Shown: positions 16,660-43,877 of the stretch, in pieces
How positions within the stretch are numbered: the first letter of the stretch is position 1
Layout of the letters: every line of letters begins with the position of its first letter
Assembly (NCBI RefSeq): GCF_016026235.1
Contig: NZ_CP065613.1
Length of the DNA: 64,000 bases
DNA from: Escherichia coli
GTDB taxonomy: Bacteria > Pseudomonadota > Gammaproteobacteria > Enterobacterales > Enterobacteriaceae
Reading direction: 5' to 3' (one strand)
Position numbers and translations under genes: made by a program
Notes under the pieces: generated by a model
What the model was told of the DNA's origin: nothing
Seen by the model: only the letters and a program-made list of their open reading frames with translations
Database searches by the model: none

Positions 16660-16866
16660 AATGTAGGTCGCATTCGGCACTTATTGTCGGATGCGATGCT
16701 TGCGCATCTTATCCGACCTACGAATCGCATCGAATCTGTAGGCCAGATAAGGCATTTACGCAGCATCCGGCACTTATTGTCGGATGCGATGCTGGCGCAT
16801 CTTATCCGACCTACAAATCGCATCGAACCGTAGGCCGGATAAGGTGTTTACGCCGCATCCGGCAAA
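16660..16866. repeat. REP/BIME cluster, two tandem units of about 93 bp
   Basis: Two direct copies of ...GGCACTTATTGTCGGATGCGATGCT.GCGCATCTTATCCGACCTAC... with imperfect palindromes. Confidence 0.6.
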
Positions 16867-20271: not shown

Positions 20272-20592
20272 TTTTATGTCCTTTGCATTTGTTCAGATAG
20301 CCCTGTGTTCAGCAGGGCGGTCAGGTACTTGAACACCGTGCAAAGTCGGCCCGTATCCTTAACCTTTCGGCTGTTTTTCGGTATACGCGCTACCCGACCA
20401 TATCTGAAAAATGGACATAAAAAATCCGCATGACTGACGGGTGCGGTTTCCGCTTTGCAAGGTGTGTTCAGCACCATGAAGCGGAATATAGCCCCGTTAA
20501 TGCGGTGTTGTCAAATCATGTAGGCCTTATCTTGCTGTAAGCCGCGCCATTCGGGCTTTTCCCCACATTTGGGGAAAACTATCTTGTCAAAA

Positions 20593-32031: not shown

Positions 32032-34938
32032 ATGAGGCCAAGTGAACTTAGCGACCTGCTTTGGGCGCAGGTTGACAGGGTGGCTCCGCACCTGTTGCCA
32101 AATGGCAAGAAAGAGGGGCATGAGTGGGTTGCCGGTAACGTCAACGGTGACAAGGGAAACAGCCTTAAGGTCAACCTTAGCGGCAAGAAAAAATGGGCTG
32201 ATTTCGCTGAGGGAGACGGCGGTGACATGCTTGATTTGTGGATGGCATGTCGTGGAATTAACCTGCATCAGGCTATGCAGGAAGCGAAAGCATTTCTCGG
32301 TATCAAGGATGACGATCACCATTTCGATGCCAGACGTGAGAAGAAATTCTCCAGACCTGATCGCAAGAAAATCGCCCGCTACGTTACCAGAACAGAATCC
32401 CATCTTGAGTACCTGCAATCGCGTGGCATATCGCCAGAAGTCGTAAAGCGCTACGAGGTTGTCAGCGGCAAGGTGTGGAATGGAGAACGAGAACTGGATG
32501 CTCTGGTGCTTCCGTACAAACGCGATGGTGAGTTGTTGCAGGTCAAGCGAATCAGCACTGAGCGCCCGGACGGGAAGAAAGTCATTATGGCAGAAGGTGA
32601 TTGCGAACCTTGTCTGTTCGGATGGCAGGCTCTGGACGCTGGCGTGAGGGCGGTTGTACTTTGCGAAGGCGAAATTGATTGTATGAGCTATGCGCAATAC
32701 GGCATCTCGGCGTTATCCGTGCCGTTTGGTGGCGGGAAAGGCGCTAAGCAACAGTGGATTGAGTTTGAGTATCACAACCTCGACAGGTTTGAGGAAATAT
32801 TCATCTCGATGGACGTTGATGATGTTGGTCGTGAAGCCGCAAGGGAAATCGCAAGCCGACTCGGTGAACATCGTTGCCGTCTTGTTACTCTGCCGTACAA
32901 AGACATCAACGAATGCCTGATGAACGGTGTTACCGAGGATGAAATCTGGCAGTACATCGGCACGGCATCCTACTTTGATCCTGAAGAACTCTACAGCGCG
33001 CGAGAGTTTTACCAGGACACTATCAACGCTTTCTACAGCAAGCAGCAGTATCTGTTTAATCCACCGTGGGAATCTCTGGCAGATAAATTCCAGTTCCGTG
33101 AGGCCGAGTTGACGCTGGTCAATGGTGTGAACGGTCACGGAAAGGCATGCCCACTGAATGAGCCTATTCTTTTAGCTGATGGGACATGGACTACTCACGG
33201 GAATGTAAAAATTGGCGATCAGGTGGCGTCAGTAGACGGCAATCCGTCAACTGTCACTGGGATATTCCCGCAGGGTGTTAGAGATGTTTACCGAGTCACA
33301 TTTGAAGATGGTCGTTATGTTGATTGCGCAGGCGATCACCTATGGGAGGTCACTAGTCGTGGATTCACGAAAGGCGAGAAACGCCGCGTGATAGATACCT
33401 TCGGGTTGAAGCGGTTGAGTGAAACGAAGAGGCACAAAAATGGCGTTAGGATTCCTGAAATAACTGGTGACTTTGGCGACCACTCAGAGCCATTAGCATG
33501 GGTTATCGGCTCCCTTCTCGGGGATGGTAGTCTTAGCAATGGGAGCGTGAAGTTTTCAAACGTCGAGCCATACATGATCGAGCGTATGAAGGCTGAACTG
33601 CCTGATTACAACTTCTCTGGAGATGGTAAGGACTGGCTGATATCAACGGCGCGTGGTCAGGTAAATCCACTCATGGAGACCCTGCGAGGTTATGGACTAA
33701 TGGGGTGCACAGCAAAAAACAAATTCATCCCTCGTGTGTTTTTTTCCGCAAATAAATCAACGCGTATAGGCATGCTGTGTGGTCTGCTTGAAACGGATGG
33801 GTATGTCGAGAAGGATGGAACGCTTGTTTTTTCCTCAGCAAGTGAAGAACTGCGCAATGGGGTTGTTCAACTGGTTAACTCACTCGGCGGGTCATGCCGG
33901 ACGCGAGTTAAAACTGGCGTGACATACACATACAAGGACGATAAGCGGCATGGGATGGATTCATACGAGGCAAGAATCAGACTGACAAGAGAAATCAGGG
34001 AGGCCATCCGTTCACCACGACTCAATGGCAGATTAACTGCGCATCGATTCGAGGGCTGTGGGGTATTCGTCAGGAATGTTGAAAAAATCGGCAATGCAGA
34101 ATGCTTGTGTATTATGGTCGATCACCCTCGCCACCTGTATGTAACCAGGGGATATGTGGCGACGCATAACACCGAGGTTGTCGGGCATATGGCACTTGAG
34201 GCAATGCGTCAGGGTGTGAAGACGTGCATCGCGTCACTTGAGCTGAAGCCTGGTATTCTCCTTAAGCGCCTTACCCGTCAGGCGACGTGCTGCAAGATTC
34301 CGCCAGTGCTGGAAATTGACTCTGCATTTAAATTTTATGACGAAAGACTTTGGGTGTTTGGCCTGACCGGAACGGCGAAAGCCGACAGGCTGATCGAAAT
34401 ATTCGACTACGCTCGCCGCCGATACGGGATCCAGTTATTCATCATCGACAGCCTGATGAAATGTGGCATAGGCGACGATGACTATAACGGGCAGAAGGCG
34501 TTTGTTGACTCGATTTGCGACTTCAAAAACAAAACAAACTCCCACGTCATTCTCGTTACTCACTCGCGAAAAGGAGACAGCGAAGAAAAACCAACCGGGA
34601 AAATGGACGTAAAAGGCTCTGGAGCGATAACAGACCTGACAGACAACCTTTTCATCATCTGGCGTAACAAGGCTCGCGAGAGAGCGTTACAGAGAGTTCA
34701 GAGTGGTGAAAAGATGTCAGAGAAGGACGAACAGCTACTGGCATCTCCGGCATCTGTTTTAATGCTTGAAAAACAACGTAACGGCGAAGGTTGGGAAGGT
34801 GGTGTCCCGTTGTTCCTTGACGAGCAATCGCACCAGTTCCTGCAACTTGAATCAGGATCGCCATATAGCTACATCGCCAATATGCCGAAATCGGAATATG
34901 ACGAGGCGTGGCGACAGGAAAACGTGACGGAGTATTAA
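32032..34938 (+). CDS. Primase-helicase (toprim primase plus DnaB-like helicase) containing an intein
   Basis: 968 aa; toprim motifs (VVLCEGEIDCMS, FISMDVDDVG); helicase P-loop GVNGHGKA and Walker B-like LFIIDSL; intein inserted after GKA. Confidence 0.8.
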   Translation: MRPSELSDLLWAQVDRVAPHLLPNGKKEGHEWVAGNVNGDKGNSLKVNLSGKKKWADFAEGDGGDMLDLWMACRGINLHQAMQEAKAFLGIKDDDHHFDARREKKFSRPDRKKIARYVTRTESHLEYLQSRGISPEVVKRYEVVSGKVWNGERELDALVLPYKRDGELLQVKRISTERPDGKKVIMAEGDCEPCLFGWQALDAGVRAVVLCEGEIDCMSYAQYGISALSVPFGGGKGAKQQWIEFEYHNLDRFEEIFISMDVDDVGREAAREIASRLGEHRCRLVTLPYKDINECLMNGVTEDEIWQYIGTASYFDPEELYSAREFYQDTINAFYSKQQYLFNPPWESLADKFQFREAELTLVNGVNGHGKACPLNEPILLADGTWTTHGNVKIGDQVASVDGNPSTVTGIFPQGVRDVYRVTFEDGRYVDCAGDHLWEVTSRGFTKGEKRRVIDTFGLKRLSETKRHKNGVRIPEITGDFGDHSEPLAWVIGSLLGDGSLSNGSVKFSNVEPYMIERMKAELPDYNFSGDGKDWLISTARGQVNPLMETLRGYGLMGCTAKNKFIPRVFFSANKSTRIGMLCGLLETDGYVEKDGTLVFSSASEELRNGVVQLVNSLGGSCRTRVKTGVTYTYKDDKRHGMDSYEARIRLTREIREAIRSPRLNGRLTAHRFEGCGVFVRNVEKIGNAECLCIMVDHPRHLYVTRGYVATHNTEVVGHMALEAMRQGVKTCIASLELKPGILLKRLTRQATCCKIPPVLEIDSAFKFYDERLWVFGLTGTAKADRLIEIFDYARRRYGIQLFIIDSLMKCGIGDDDYNGQKAFVDSICDFKNKTNSHVILVTHSRKGDSEEKPTGKMDVKGSGAITDLTDNLFIIWRNKARERALQRVQSGEKMSEKDEQLLASPASVLMLEKQRNGEGWEGGVPLFLDEQSHQFLQLESGSPYSYIANMPKSEYDEAWRQENVTEY
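33148..34170 (+). other. Intein (341 aa) with LAGLIDADG homing-endonuclease domain
   Basis: Starts CPLNEPILLADGTW...IGDQVASVDG, two LAGLIDADG-type blocks (LAWVIGSLLGDGSL, GMLCGLLETDGYV), ends ...VATHN followed by Thr. Confidence 0.75.
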
Positions 34939-35698: not shown

Positions 35699-35871
35699 GA
35701 CGACAGCGACGAAGTATCACCGACATCATCTGCGAAAACTGCAAATACCTTCCAACGAAACGCTCCAGAAATAAACGCAAGCCAATCCCAAAAGAATCTG
35801 ACGTAAAAACCTTCAACTACACGGCTCACCTGTGGGATATCCGGTGGCTAAGACATCGTGCGAGGAAATGA
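35695..35871 (+). CDS. ninE: NinE
   Basis: 58 aa [58 protein letters not shown]. Confidence 0.75.
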
Positions 35872-35914
35872 CAATGGTGCTCGACAAGCCCCGCCGTTCA
35901 GGGCGGGGAAATTG

Positions 35915-36219
35915 TTAAGGATGAGGCTGAATTTCTTCAGGTCGGTATTTTGTTGAGAGATGAGAGATGTCAACTTCTCTCTCTGCTTTTTCAAGACTCC
36001 ATGCCATCTGAAGACGAATCCATGAGGCCGGAGTTCCTCCAAGAACGGCGGCGAGACGAACAGCCATTTCAGGAGAGATTGCCGCATTTCCTGAAACCAG
36101 TCGCTGAACAGTGGAAGGCGCAACATCAAGCGCTCTTGCCAGCTCTCTGATCCCAATATTCTGATCTTCCAGAATATCCGCAATAATTTCTCCTGGATGA
36201 GGGGGTTAAACATCGTCAT
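35915..36219 (-). pseudogene. higA: HigA antitoxin (HTH), frameshifted near its start
   Basis: HTH frame encodes PPHPGEIIADILEDQNIGIRELARALDVAPSTVQRLVSG... but the only start codon is one base out of frame across a C5 run; the 123-aa ORF-track product is the out-of-frame read-through. Confidence 0.6.
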
Positions 36220-36497
36220 TAATGGTAATCCTCGTAGTTAAGAATATAAGCGTCACCGTCACGAAACTCGAAGGTGATCCTCCAGTTACCGGAGACGGAG
36301 ACAGACCACGTATCGGCCCTGTCTCCTTGCAACTGGTGCAGCCTGTAACCGGCAAGGTTAATATCATCAATGATTTCGGCTTGATCTATCACCTGAAGGC
36401 GCATTCTAAGGCGTTTAACATGATTGGGATTTACGCCTGATGCACTTCCAGTTTCAAAGAAACGTTGAAGTCCTTTGTGTTTCCAGCTTTTTATCAT
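36219..36497 (-). CDS. higB: HigB toxin (RelE/ParE superfamily)
   Basis: 92 aa from ATG 36497 with AGGAAACA upstream; MIKSWKHKGLQRFFETGSASGV...GNWRITFEFRDGDAYILNYEDYH matches HigB. Confidence 0.8.
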   Translation of the reverse strand: MIKSWKHKGLQRFFETGSASGVNPNHVKRLRMRLQVIDQAEIIDDINLAGYRLHQLQGDRADTWSVSVSGNWRITFEFRDGDAYILNYEDYH

Positions 36498-36833
36498 GTT
36501 TGTTTCCTGTTGCGTTACGCGAATCATTATAGAGTGTGTTGTGTCATTCGCAACCGTTGGTTTGACAAAAACACATATCCGGGGCTATATTCCCTGAACG
36601 CCAGCAAATCTGGCGTCGGGATTGGCGTCCCGGATATCGAAACGGTGCATAACCGCGCTGGCGGTTTTTTTATGCGCTAAGCACAGTCACATTCGCGATT
36701 TATGGTGGGCTGTGTGGGGGAGTTGAGAGACTCGCCGGATGTTTCGACCGGTTACGCCAACCCTGCACAGTTCACCACCCAGCGATTGGCGTCGCAGGTG
36801 GTGAGTTAAAAACCATCGAAACGCGAGGTCGTT

Positions 36834-37520
36834 ATGACTGTTCAGATTTCTGTCAAAAACCTTTCCCCTGTTACCTATAACCAGATTCCGGTAATCACAA
36901 CTGAGTTGCTTGCCCGCCTTTATGGAACAGAAACAATCCGTATACAGCAGAATCACCATGAAAATAAATCTCGGTTTATTGAGGGAAAGCACTTCTTTAA
37001 AGCTGTTGGTGATGAACTCAGAAATTTGCGACTAGTTTTAAACGAGTCGCAAAATGAGGTGAAAATCTCTCCCAAAACCCGCTCGCTCATCCTCTGGACA
37101 GAACGAGGCGCAGCCCGCCACGCAAAAATGCTCGAAACCGATCAGGCGTGGGAAGTGTTCGAAAAACTGGAAGACTGCTATTTCAGCCAGACTTCGAAAA
37201 GCGCAGGTCATCACGAGAAGAAAACCAGCGAGCTTTCTGCAAAAGATGCAAACAGTCTGGTATGGTTGTGGGATTATGCCAACCGCTCACAGGCATTATT
37301 CCGCGAACTGTATCCGGCGCTAAGACAAATTCAGTCTAACTATTCCGGCAGATGCCACGACTACGGTCATGAGTTCTCGTATGTTATCGGAATGGCGAGA
37401 GACGTTTTAATCAATCACACACGAGATGTTGATATTAATGAGCCAGACGGACCAACGAATCTTTCTGCATGGGTAAGACTTAAGAACAAAGAATTACCTC
37501 CTTCACTACATCACTACTGA
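36834..37520 (+). CDS. ORF6N-domain protein (antirepressor N-terminal domain family)
   Basis: 228 aa; N-terminal 120 aa paralogous to the ORF at 20593-21375. Confidence 0.5.
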
Positions 37521-40039: not shown

Positions 40040-40114
40040 GGGTCAGTCGTATAAAGGTCATTACGGAAGGCTGTTAACCTTCTTATCGTGGTTCGAGTCC
40101 ACGCTGTCCCGCCA
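40040..40114 (+). tRNA. tRNA-like gene, anticodon GTT (Asn) by manual fold; possibly degenerate
   Basis: Cloverleaf: acceptor GGGTCAG/CTGTCCC (one mismatch), 3-bp D stem, anticodon stem GAAGG/CCTTC with loop CTGTTAA, T arm CGTGG-TTCGAGT-CCACG, 3' CCA. Confidence 0.45.
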
Positions 40115-40119
40115 AATAT

Positions 40120-40195
40120 GCTGGTTTAGCTCTAATGGTAGAGCAGTCGCCTTGTAAGCGAATGGGTAGCGGTTCAAGTCCGTTAACCAGCACCA
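40120..40195 (+). tRNA. tRNA, anticodon TGT (Thr) by manual fold
   Basis: Perfect acceptor stem GCTGGTT/AACCAGC, D arm GCTC-TAATGGTA-GAGC, anticodon loop CTTGTAA, T arm AGCGG-TTCAAGT-CCGTT, 3' ACCA. Confidence 0.55.
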
Positions 40196-42614: not shown

Positions 42615-42657
42615 TGAGGTGTACTGGCAATAGCGGACACTACCATTTGTTCTTTTT

Positions 42658-43476
42658 TTAAGCAGCCATCTGATGATATTTTTCCCTGAAGGCTGCCGGG
42701 GAGATATTCCCCAGACGAGAGTGACGACGCTGACGATTGTAGAAAATCTCAATGTATTCCCGTATTACTGAGATGGCTTCATCCCGGTTATTAAAACGAT
42801 AGTGGCTCAGGCTCTCATTTTTCAGCGTTCCCCAGAAGCTTTCCATCGGAGCGTTGTCGTAACAGTTACCTTTACGCGACATTGATGTTTTCAGACCAAA
42901 CTGCTCCTGTATGACCCGGTAATCGTATGCGCAGTACTGTGAACCTCGATCAGAGTGGTGGATTAGCCCGGCAGGTGGGCGCTGGCTCCTGAGCGCCATA
43001 AACAGGGCTTTACCTGTCAGCTCTTTTGTCATGCGCTCTCCCATGGCGTAGCCGACAATTTCGCACGTATAAACATCTTTGATGCCAGCGAGGTACAACC
43101 ATCCCTCCTGTGTGGCAACATACGTCAGGTCCGCCACCCAGACCTGATTTGGTGCTGTAGGAGCGAACGTCTGGTTCAGCAGATTTGGCGCAACTGGCAG
43201 ATTGTGGTTCGGGTTCGTAGTCGCTCTGAACTTGCGTTTCTGCTTACAGCGTAGCCTTAGCTCCTTACGAAGACGTGCCAGTCGGTCACGACCAACGATG
43301 ATGCCATTCTCTGCCAGCTCCGTCTGGAGCCGCCGGGTTCCATATGTTTCGCGAGTGCGGATATGTGCCACCTTAATCTCCAGTTTTAGCCGCTCATCAC
43401 TTTGTTTTCTGTCTGAGGGTTCATGCTGTACCCAGTTGTAATAACCGCTCCTGGATACACCAAATACCTGACACAT
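42658..43476 (-). CDS. IS3-family transposase OrfB (DDE integrase domain)
   Basis: 272-aa ORF with DDE motif region; normally expressed as an OrfAB fusion by -1 frameshift. Confidence 0.85.
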   Translation of the reverse strand: MCQVFGVSRSGYYNWVQHEPSDRKQSDERLKLEIKVAHIRTRETYGTRRLQTELAENGIIVGRDRLARLRKELRLRCKQKRKFRATTNPNHNLPVAPNLLNQTFAPTAPNQVWVADLTYVATQEGWLYLAGIKDVYTCEIVGYAMGERMTKELTGKALFMALRSQRPPAGLIHHSDRGSQYCAYDYRVIQEQFGLKTSMSRKGNCYDNAPMESFWGTLKNESLSHYRFNNRDEAISVIREYIEIFYNRQRRHSRLGNISPAAFREKYHQMAA

Positions 43477-43525
43477 CGCTTCAATGGGAAATTGTTGTCG
43501 CCATTGTTCGATTAACGCGTATTTT

Positions 43526-43813
43526 TCAGCGACTCCTGTGCAAAATACGCTGTTGCTTTTTTAATATATCTCGCTCAAGGCGAGCTTCATTTAACGCCTT
43601 ACGCAGTTGCAGAATTTCAGATTCCAGTTCAGCCACCGTGCGGGAGCCAGGAGTACCGAGCCCTTTTCTGGCGGCGGTAACCCATTGTCCTAAAGTGCCT
43701 TCAGGAAGGGATAATCGGGAAGCGCCTTCACTGATCGAAAGTTGATTTTCAAGAACCGTTCTGACAGCTTCGGCTTTGAACTCTTTAGAGTAACGTTGGG
43801 TTTTTCTGCTCAT
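43526..43813 (-). CDS. IS3-family transposase OrfA (HTH)
   Basis: 95 aa with HTH and leucine zipper; slippery TTAAAAAAG near its 3' end. Confidence 0.85.
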   Translation of the reverse strand: MSRKTQRYSKEFKAEAVRTVLENQLSISEGASRLSLPEGTLGQWVTAARKGLGTPGSRTVAELESEILQLRKALNEARLERDILKKQQRILHRSR

Positions 43814-43877
43814 TATTAGCTCCTTCTGATGCCATTCTATTTCAGGAAGGAGTGTCCGTTAAACTCAGGCTACCTCA

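Follow-up and report, generated by a model that had tools for sequence, protein, structure and literature searches.

Within the window analysed here, the whole 64,000-nucleotide stretch of contig NZ_CP065613.1 from Escherichia coli (assembly GCF_016026235.1), a 968-aa open reading frame at the lambdoid 'P' position raises the question of what lies inside the P-loop of the primase-helicase that it encodes, where that insert begins, and whether it is likely to be more than a relic. A preliminary description of the locus had proposed an intein of 341 codons that opens with Cys and carries two LAGLIDADG blocks, and had called such elements rare in enterobacterial chromosomes. Judged from sequence comparison, the segment at 33145-34170 is very probably a mobile class 3 intein with a LAGLIDADG homing endonuclease, inserted between Lys and Thr of the GxxGxGKT motif of a lambdoid prophage primase-helicase. 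It is also an element already known, the catalogued and published intein of Min27, phi24B and other Stx2 phages.

A primase-helicase interrupted within Walker A

The precursor, recognised in the preliminary description as a 968-aa replication protein and present as such in the ORF list, matches PHROG DNA primase/helicase families at E values of 1e-194 and 1e-164, and its Pfam matches outside the insert are Toprim_2 and AAA_25. Its layout, a Toprim primase fused to a RecA-like helicase with Walker A and Walker B motifs, is that of the T7 gp4 and Twinkle-type (SF4) enzymes. An identical 968-aa protein, recorded as E. coli, is held at NCBI as 'toprim domain-containing protein / putative replication protein P'. 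Once the insert is removed in silico, the resulting extein, of 626 aa and 71.2 kDa, aligns to T7 gp4 without a gap across Walker A (GHGKT versus GMGKS; E 1e-23), as the preliminary description had foreseen for gp4-type helicases; residues 192-539 of the spliced extein, Walker A included, align both to T7 gp4 (1e-23) and to Twinkle (5e-14), and AAA_25 becomes contiguous over residues 357-507.

Table 1. Features of the interrupted primase-helicase gene and its neighbourhood, in positions of the window.
Feature	Position (nt)	Strand	Remarks
O-like replication initiator gene, split by ISEc20	29721..31924 (pieces 29721..~30039, ~31487..31924)	+	PHROG 'replication initiation', 2e-55 and 2e-29
ISEc20 (IS110 family), in iteron array of O-like gene	30040..31482	-	NCBIfam transpos_IS110, 1e-68; ends approximate within 3 nt
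Precursor ORF, T7-gp4-like primase-helicase	32032..34938	+	968 aa, 109.2 kDa
N-extein, residues 1-371	32032..33144	+	DnaG-like N-terminal region, Toprim domain, start of Walker A
Toprim domain, residues 209-296	32656-32919	+	Pfam Toprim_2, E 2e-11 to 4e-11; T7 gp4 alignment
Walker A, first part, GVNGHGK	33124-33144	+	End of N-extein
Intein, Ala1..Asn342 (Ala372-Asn713)	33145..34170	+	342 codons, 38.0 kDa; intein-less alleles lack precisely this DNA
Block A, ACPLNEPILLADG	33145..33183	+	Ala1 is intein residue 1, Cys2 is Cys373; relatives' consensus A-Q-P-L
Block B, GRYVDCAGDHLWEV	33310..33351	+	Aligned to His65/Trp67 of class 3 MchDnaB1 intein, 6rix
His65 (B:10)	33337-33339	+	Kept in 138/139 relatives
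Trp67 (B:12), class 3 signature Trp	33343-33345	+	Kept in 139/139 relatives
LAGLIDADG motif 1, LAWVIGSLLGDGSL, intein residues 117-130	33493..33534	+	Catalytic Asp127; aligned to PI-SceI motif; Asp/Asn kept in relatives
LAGLIDADG motif 2, RIGMLCGLLETDGYV, intein residues 207-221	33763..33807	+	Catalytic Asp218; Pfam LAGLIDADG_3; aligned to PI-SceI LAGLIDSDGYV
Block F, ECLCIMVDHPRHLYVT	34099..34146	+	Aligned to catalytic Cys124 of MchDnaB1 (PMC7664689)
Cys322 (F:4), predicted initiating nucleophile	34108-34110	+	Kept in 138/139 relatives
Block G, GYVATHN, and Thr+1	34150..34173	+	Thr340 G:5, His341 G:6, Asn342 G:7; relatives T 137/139, H 138/139, N 138/139
C-extein, residues 714-968 and stop codon	34171..34938	+	Remainder of SF4 helicase domain; T7 gp4/Twinkle alignment
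Walker B-like IQLFIIDS	34429-34452	+	In C-extein

Intein-less alleles fix the boundaries

Four intein-less alleles, those of E. coli LR-24, Stx2_EH2086, mEp043 and ES18, were compared with the gene and are 86-99% identical to it. All four read GGAAAA/ACGGAG at the insertion point (marked by the slash; in the protein GK/T, within GVNGHGK/TEVVG), whereas five intein-containing alleles carry an extra 1026 nt there whose first codon is GCA (Ala). The insert is thus in frame and absent from close orthologues, and its removal restores a motif of the host: excision of Ala to Asn, 342 codons in all, gives GHGKT, a canonical GxxGxGKT. The empty site, in which CACGGAAAA is joined directly to ACGGAGGTT, is conserved in the intein-less phage alleles, where it reads CTGGTCAATGGTGTGAACGGTCACGGAAAAACGGAGGTTGTCGGGCATATG; over 60 nt it is nearly invariant among the four empty alleles, ES18 included. 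The +1 codon is ACC in 5/5 occupied alleles and ACG in 4/4 empty ones, and splicing from the Ala1 boundary is predicted to leave the junction peptide GVNGHGKTEVVGH.

The limits given in the preliminary description stand in part. Cys373 does start at nt 33148, Asn713 does end at nt 34170, and the insert does close with His-Asn followed by Thr, but its true start is Ala372, so that one codon has to be added to the 341. The ligated product that it had predicted, GVNGHGKA-TEVVG, falls with the old start, since taking out 341 codons would give GHGKAT, a string that does not conform to Walker A.

A class 3 signature

Conservation was counted in an alignment of 139 full-length relatives. At intein position 1, 106 of these have Ala and three have Cys; at position 2, 103 have Gln and 30 have Leu; and at +1, 126 have Thr and 11 have Ser. 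On the extein side, -2 is G in 126 and -1 is K in 128. The block B His, the C-terminal His-Asn and the Thr at +1 that mark an intein are all present, together with a Hom_end_hint match and a HINT fold in the structural model. Moreover, Ala at position 1, the WCT triplet (Trp B:12, Cys F:4, Thr G:5) and Thr at +1, where class 3 inteins have Ser or Thr and rarely Cys, agree with the definition of that class (PMC5222942, PMC2807308). In the MchDnaB1 intein the residues aligned with Trp67, Cys322 and Thr340 are Trp67, Cys124 and Thr143 (PMC7664689). Class 2, the KlbA-type inteins with Ala1 in which Cys+1 attacks the N-terminal junction directly, does not fit by the criteria of PMC2807308, since +1 is Thr rather than Cys and the WCT triplet is present. 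The register of ILLADG/VLMADG against PI-SceI sets Ala372 opposite Cys1 of that intein, and Thr714 of the precursor occupies both the +1 nucleophile position and the Thr of Walker A. Two features count against the class 3 reading: block B position 7 is Ala, not Thr or Ser, and the Cys at position 2, beside the scissile bond, is unique among the relatives examined, 0/139 of which have it.

That Cys is also the basis of a competing account, in which the insert is a 341-residue intein of the standard class 1 type, Cys373 would carry out the N-S acyl shift and the spliced product would read GVNGHGKA-TEVVG. We consider this very unlikely, even though a block-A-like sequence opens with the Cys, an ungapped phmmer alignment puts Cys373 opposite residue 1 of the MchDnaB1 mini-intein, and three relatives have Cys at position 1. 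The one-residue offset from MchDnaB1 arises because block A holds an extra Thr14, which is absent from 74 of the 139 relatives, and A-C-P-L falls on the family consensus A-Q-P-L, which places the unconserved Cys373 at position 2. In addition, F:4 is Cys instead of the Asp usual in class 1, and the Trp/Cys/Thr triplet is complete. Because the intein-less alleles also lack the Ala codon, the class 1 route would leave an extra Ala in Walker A (GKAT), a form seen in no homologue, with T7 gp4 aligning as GKS. Cys373 as residue 1, the start assumed in the preliminary description, was accordingly dropped after comparison with the alleles that lack the intein and with the family alignment of 139 sequences.

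Prophage context and the question of decay

The preliminary description was right that the adjacent initiator is disrupted by an insertion sequence. The element that splits the O-like gene is a copy of ISEc20 99.9% identical to annotated ISEc20 copies, and its junctions were taken from comparison with the uninterrupted prophage of E. coli FDAARGOS_943, the closest prophage, whose compared region holds IS600 copies; in L001 and L003 the O-like initiator gene is intact, at 777 nt. Because its O-like initiator is split, the prophage is probably replication-defective, and the primase-helicase gene may for that reason never be productively expressed here.

One could then suppose that the insert is a decayed remnant that no longer splices, and that the defective prophage yields a dead 109-kDa precursor only. 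The degradation of the prophage is in keeping with this, ISEc20 having entered the O-like gene and a copy of IS600 lying elsewhere in the window; truncated versions of the primase-helicase gene are common in Shigella flexneri, partial '-n' inteins figure in PMC2807308, and inactive class 3 intein pseudogenes exist (PMC3196547). Nonetheless, we regard decay as most improbable. The ORF is full length, and His65, Trp67, Cys322, Thr340, His341, Asn342 and Thr+1 are all intact. The intein protein shows 0 differences from that of FDAARGOS_943 and three from those of phi24B and Xuzhou21, where D, E and A replace the N391, G458 and V544 found here (N391D, G458E, V544A), none of them at a conserved block position. 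Some carriers of the intein have been sequenced as phage genomes, which implies that functional helicase is made.

Endonuclease domain, fold and family

The two LAGLIDADG blocks reported in the preliminary description are both present. Each bears its catalytic Asp, as in two-motif single-chain LAGLIDADG enzymes, whose two helices, each closed by a catalytic acidic residue, belong to an alpha-beta-beta-alpha-beta-beta-alpha fold. Asp218 is kept in 138/139 relatives, and among the structural matches are I-DmoI, I-Tsp061I and the endonuclease domain of PI-SceI. The intein and endonuclease profiles expected there also match within the insert (Hom_end_hint 9.5e-5, LAGLIDADG_3 1.2e-5), while the NCBIfam search gave sub-threshold matches only, to intein-containing DnaB, RecA and RNR models, a dedicated model being absent from that collection. 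In the AlphaFold model of the intein (pLDDT 96.5), a HINT splicing domain is split by a LAGLIDADG domain, and Foldseek places closest to it PI-SceI (E 7e-18, TM about 0.7) and VMA inteins including TliVMA, and PI-PfuI, with class 3 DnaB inteins and I-DmoI also matched.

A word-indexed homologue search gave six matches, and the statistics rest instead on an exhaustive search of representative proteins, where the segment had 16,547 matches at E<=1e-3, 2,782 of them at E<=1e-30. The similarity is far beyond chance. The proposal of a P-loop intein in a prophage primase-helicase is thus borne out by Pfam and PDB sequence matches, by the AlphaFold model with its Foldseek matches, by the intein-less orthologues and by the T7 gp4 alignment. 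That the segment is instead an ordinary accessory domain of the helicase family, the case that the preliminary description had set against its own proposal, is vanishingly improbable and refuted by the intein-less alleles: the pipelines' label 'toprim domain-containing protein' for the whole ORF speaks for it, with no other support, but those E. coli genomes that lack the full-length gene, sampled across the ranking (217 genomes without the segment), mostly carry an allele of 98-99% identity that lacks exactly this segment, as do about 30 phage records, and the segment matches inteins hosted by unrelated P-loop proteins, DnaB and PhoH among them.

Relation to known inteins

The novelty implied by the preliminary description is unfounded. 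Smith et al. 2012 assigned residues 372-702 of phi24B P to an intein, noted an orthologue in a Shigella flexneri prophage, and stated that its function was not established by experiment (PMC3430580); a sentence in Tori et al. 2010 lists Shigella prophage primase inteins without an N-terminal nucleophile ('ShP-Sfv ... Primase', InBase; PMC2807308). Together with the sequence identity to Min27 and phi24B, the former paper and that one sentence of the latter are the grounds for our verdict that the element was already known. The account of Stx phage replication modules by Llarena et al. 2021 covers neither this gene type nor the intein (PMC8044961). In the literature searched we found no experimental work on this intein. 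Its InBase entry is presumably 'EP-Min27 Primase', a name with no occurrence in that literature.

The intein of the Min27/phi24B primase or protein P and its Shigella flexneri orthologues are the same element as the one described here, the host protein likewise being 968 aa long and interrupted at the same point. At the DNA level the intein is 99.4% identical to those of the Stx2 phages Min27, phi24B, Stx2a_F403 and Stx2a_F451; for Min27/phi24B, identity over the gene is 99.1%, and the whole protein differs from phi24B P at 10 aa. The carrier here is another lambdoid prophage, located at ybhC/att-lambda; the window holds no stx, and ISEc20 interrupts the O-like gene of this prophage. Nor does the rarity claimed for such inteins hold here: the element is common in lambdoid prophages, with the full-length gene in 78 of 5426 complete E. 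coli genomes and a 90%-identity cluster (n=1494) that spans E. coli, Shigella and Salmonella. Of the nearly identical Stx2a phages, Min27, phi24B and F403 carry it and EH2085 and EH2086 lack it.

For the splicing domain, the best PDB sequence matches are class 3 DnaB inteins. Those of mycobacteriophage Bethlehem DnaB, Msm DnaB1 (6bs8) and MchDnaB1 (6rix) occupy the same site after the Walker A GK of an SF4 helicase and share the lack of a position-1 nucleophile, His65, Trp67, Cys F:4, T-H-N and Thr+1; their host is cellular DnaB, whereas here it is a gp4-type primase-helicase, and the Msm and Mch DnaB1 inteins, of low sequence identity to this one, are mini-inteins without an endonuclease. The same architecture is seen in LAGLIDADG-bearing P-loop class 3 inteins of bacterial DnaB and PhoH (e.g. 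P0007, P0002 and P0004), which are 32-51% identical over all 342 residues and agree in signature and in the site between GK and T, but differ in host and have Gln or Leu at position 2 where this intein has Cys. The best structural match, PI-SceI (the yeast VMA1 intein), shares the HINT and LAGLIDADG layout, and both motifs align; it is nonetheless a larger, eukaryotic class 1 intein with Cys1 and Cys+1 and an extra DNA-recognition region, and identity to it is 15-16%.

Proposed mechanism

We infer the splicing chemistry from the MP-Be DnaB and Msm/Mch DnaB1 inteins, for which the class 3 pathway has been worked out. The 109-kDa precursor would fold first, and Cys322 (F:4), helped by His65 and Trp67, would attack the Lys371-Ala372 bond to form a thioester branched intermediate. 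The N-extein would then pass to the hydroxyl of Thr+1, cyclisation of Asn342 would free the 38-kDa intein, and an O-to-N shift would produce a 71-kDa helicase whose GVNGHGKT P-loop is intact. In MP-Be DnaB, block B position 7 is dispensable.

The motifs further suggest an active endonuclease and a target for it: the free intein is predicted to cut the empty site in intein-less phage alleles, so that the intein would be copied in during co-infection. We also considered whether a disulfide between Cys2 and Cys322, or Cys2 and Cys320, might make splicing of the phage helicase redox-sensitive, an idea drawn from analogy that we think unlikely. Redox control of the Msm DnaB1 intein would be a precedent. 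Another is the class 3 MchDnaB1 intein, in which H2O2 inhibits N-cleavage (PMC7664689).

Significance

Since the element is a catalogued, published intein, its recovery here carries little weight as a discovery, and its value is to some extent one of annotation: the label 'toprim domain-containing protein' applied by annotation pipelines conceals the intein and, with it, the real helicase of 626 aa. The Ala372 boundary and class 3 chemistry, with Cys322 as the predicted nucleophile, set the product masses to be expected and the mutants that would be informative. Were the disulfide to prove real, oxidative stress would modulate the replication, and hence the toxin gene dosage, of intein-carrying Stx2a phages. 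The presence/absence polymorphism among Stx2a phages offers a natural system for homing, and for the question of whether splicing limits Stx phage replication.

Limits of the intein and its predicted ligated product

Overall, the feature is genuine: the preliminary description, which placed an intein in the P-loop of the prophage primase-helicase (P), was right in outline and wrong on a one-codon boundary, the mechanistic class and the ligated sequence. Its coordinates for Cys373 (start, nt 33148) and Asn713 (end, nt 34170) are exact, and the intein and LAGLIDADG profile matches that it called for are found inside the insert. The insert's sequence resemblance to inteins is not a matter of chance: a full search of 1.84 billion representative proteins gives 16,547 hits at E<=1e-3, of which 2,782 reach E<=1e-30; the matching PDB sequences are the DnaB mini-inteins 6rix, 6riy and 6bs8, the gp41-1 intein and the endonuclease part of PI-SceI.

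Features of the primase-helicase ORF and of the surrounding prophage
Feature	Position	Strand	Basis or remark
Primase-helicase ORF, 968 aa	32032..34938	+	ORF list
Toprim_2	residues 209-296 of 968-aa ORF		Pfam
Hom_end_hint	residues 379-424 of 968-aa ORF		Pfam
LAGLIDADG_3	residues 579-634 of 968-aa ORF		Pfam
AAA_25 P-loop domain, its end	residues 789-849 of 968-aa ORF		Pfam
ISEc20 (IS110 family)	~30040-31482	-	splits O-like initiator upstream of P
ISEc20 transposase	31259..30063	-	matches NCBIfam 'IS110 family RNA-guided transposase'
isrK	36598-36671	+	Rfam
C4 antisense RNA	36698-36782	+	Rfam
lambda cIII thermoregulator element	24951-25009	-	Rfam, 88.5 bits; early-left operon
tRNA-Asn(GTT) + tRNA-Thr(TGT), phage-borne	40040-40195	+	downstream of Q-like antiterminator region
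Putative RelE/HigB-like toxin ORF	36219-36527	-	two-gene cassette 35848-36527
123-aa partner ORF	35848-36219	-	1-base overlap with toxin ORF
sRNA-Xcc1	20311-20399	-	Rfam gathering-score match, 68.3 bits; region adjoining integrase
naRNA4	16741-16811	+	Rfam gathering-score match, 60.4 bits, just over threshold; near ybhC

The P gene is present in 295 of 5,426 complete E. coli genomes, as a 2907-nt form in 78 and, in the other 217, mostly as a 1881-nt form whose sequence to either side of the insertion point is 98-99% identical, judging from a sample across the ranking. The phage collection holds nine records of the long form (including Min27, phi24B, Stx2a_F403, Stx2a_F451, Stx2_16002, phiXuzhou21 and Klebsiella phage phiKp_30) and about 30 of the short form, including Stx2_EH2085, EH2086, Sf101, mEp043, ES18, epsilon34, g341c and SEN22. 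Short alleles read …GTGAACGGTCACGGAAAA/ACGGAGGTTGTC…, or GVNGHGK/TEVVG (slash, junction), and long alleles read …GGAAAG/GCATGC…CATAAC/ACCGAG…; the inserted DNA thus spans 1026 nt, or 342 codons (33145-34170), with the Ala codon first. The C-terminal end assigned originally is retained, and the N-terminal start moves one codon upstream, to the Ala codon that had been missed. A 341-residue intein from Cys373 is very unlikely: the short alleles also lack the Ala codon, and removing 341 codons would leave GHGKAT in Walker A, whereas removing 342 gives GHGKT. The predicted ligated sequence is therefore not GVNGHGKA-T, as had been proposed, but that of the short alleles. The 626-aa product spliced in silico aligns, as anticipated, to gp4-type helicases (T7 gp4, E 1e-23; human Twinkle, 5e-14), with a gap-free junction that sets GHGKT opposite GMGKS in T7 gp4, and AAA_25 becomes a single contiguous match.

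Intein class and probable splicing route

As judged from its residues, the intein signature matches class 3, whose members lack a position-1 nucleophile, carry Trp(B:12), Cys(F:4) and Thr(G:5) as a dispersed triplet and are followed by Ser or Thr (+1) (PMC2807308, PMC5222942). When Ala372 is numbered 1, block B holds His65 and Trp67, F:4 is Cys322, and block G contains Thr340-His341-Asn342, with Thr+1 next. HMMER aligns these residues to their counterparts in MchDnaB1 (His65, Trp67, Cys124, Thr143 and Asn145), a class 3 intein whose residue roles are described in PMC7664689. The Cys formerly put forward as a catalytic Cys1 is residue 2, which is not conserved, and the class 3 triplet is present. 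The intein start, A-C-P-L, lies opposite a family consensus A-Q-P-L, and Cys1 of PI-SceI falls opposite Ala372 (ILLADG/VLMADG register).

Residues at diagnostic positions among 139 full-length relatives taken from the representative-protein search
Position	Here	Relatives
-2	Gly	G 126/139
-1	Lys	K 128/139
1	Ala	Ala 106/139, Cys 3/139
2	Cys	Gln 103, Leu 30, Cys 0 of 139
B:10	His	138/139
B:12	Trp	139/139
F:4	Cys	138/139
G:5	Thr	137/139
G:6	His	138/139
G:7	Asn	138/139
+1	Thr	Thr 126, Ser 11 of 139

Judged by match length and position, most relatives seem to be DnaB helicases, some 800 aa long, with the intein after the GK of Walker A; DnaB domains are confirmed in relatives P0002, P0005 and P0006, and a PhoH domain in P0004. 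The Cys at position 2 (33148-33150), directly past the scissile bond, is kept in all five of the occupied alleles compared, phiKp_30 included, and it could conceivably form a redox-sensitive disulfide with Cys320 or Cys322.

In the route we infer, Cys322 would attack the Lys371-Ala372 bond, the N-extein would then be handed to Thr+1, and cyclisation of Asn342 would follow, converting the precursor (computed mass 109.2 kDa) into a primase-helicase with an intact P-loop (71.2 kDa) and an intein-endonuclease (38.0 kDa). Indirect evidence that splicing works comes from the carriers that were sequenced as phage genomes.

Fold, endonuclease and possible homing

The AlphaFold model of the intein (mean pLDDT 96.5, built on 61 sequences) matches PI-SceI in a Foldseek search of the PDB (E 7e-18, TM ~0.7), as well as the Tli and Pho VMA inteins, PI-PfuI and PI-PkoII, with class 3 DnaB mini-inteins matched on the split HINT domain and I-DmoI and I-Tsp061I on the endonuclease core. 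Both LAGLIDADG motifs carry their catalytic aspartates, Asp127 (conserved in 116/139 relatives) and Asp218 (138/139).

Across 60 nt the empty site hardly varies, and this holds even for ES18, with just 87% identity in the gene. The +1 codon (34171-34173) is ACC in five of five occupied alleles and ACG in four of four empty ones, and the -1 codon (33142-33144) is AAG when occupied and AAA when empty, except in phiKp_30, which has the intein yet reads AAA. These silent differences could reflect co-conversion during homing, or an occupied allele shielded from cleavage. Together, the conserved empty site and the split at +1 fit a homing element that is, or until recently was, active, and we do not claim them as proof.

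Prophage context

The prophage adjoins ybhC and an integrase at 16.9-19.4 kb, and its closest relative, in E. coli FDAARGOS_943, differs by two amino acids in P. The IS-disrupted initiator reported earlier is borne out: ISEc20 lies within the iteron repeats GGGGCAGGAGCTGCCC of the O-like initiator gene, so the initiator is disrupted, and presumably the origin too. With its initiator split, the prophage probably cannot replicate; the P gene, which bears the intein, is itself intact. The ~220 nt from the transposase start to the ISEc20 end (31260-31482) would be the bridge/guide RNA site in the IS110 family.

Elsewhere, an IS600 (IS3 family) copy at 42615-43877, with the lysis genes on one side and the small terminase gene on the other, is 99.8% identical to both copies in the FDAARGOS_943 prophage, which shares the tRNA pair. 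That prophage also has, by annotation, adjacent genes for a RelE/ParE toxin and an HTH protein, in the part of its nin region where the two-gene cassette lies here. The isrK and C4 RNA matches lie directly upstream of an antirepressor-like ORF (36834-37520), a layout that resembles the P1/P7-type control of ant by a C4 immunity RNA.

Prior knowledge and spread

The intein is a published, widespread element that was already known. Its DNA shares 99.4% identity with the Min27 and phi24B inteins; the Min27 intein is probably InBase entry 'EP-Min27 Primase'. Of the 968 residues of P, 10 differ from phi24B P; three of these 10 lie inside the intein, all outside its block positions. Smith et al. 2012 placed the intein at residues 372-702 of phi24B P, a start that agrees with Ala372, and reported an orthologue in a Shigella flexneri prophage (PMC3430580). 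Primase inteins of Shigella prophages that have no N-terminal nucleophile are listed by Tori et al. 2010 (PMC2807308). An identical 968-aa protein is recorded in NCBI and UniRef (CAD7365468.1, A0A376FP44_ECOLX), and the 90% cluster of P counts 1,494 proteins, which come from E. coli, Shigella and Salmonella.

The same 968-aa intein gene, at 98.4% nucleotide identity and annotated only as 'hypothetical protein', is carried by the P22-like (Lederbergvirus) Klebsiella phage phiKp_30 (L004; LC768498.2, 782-3688), and members of the P cluster are recorded also from Salmonella enterica. Thus, the replication module, together with its intein, crosses genera.
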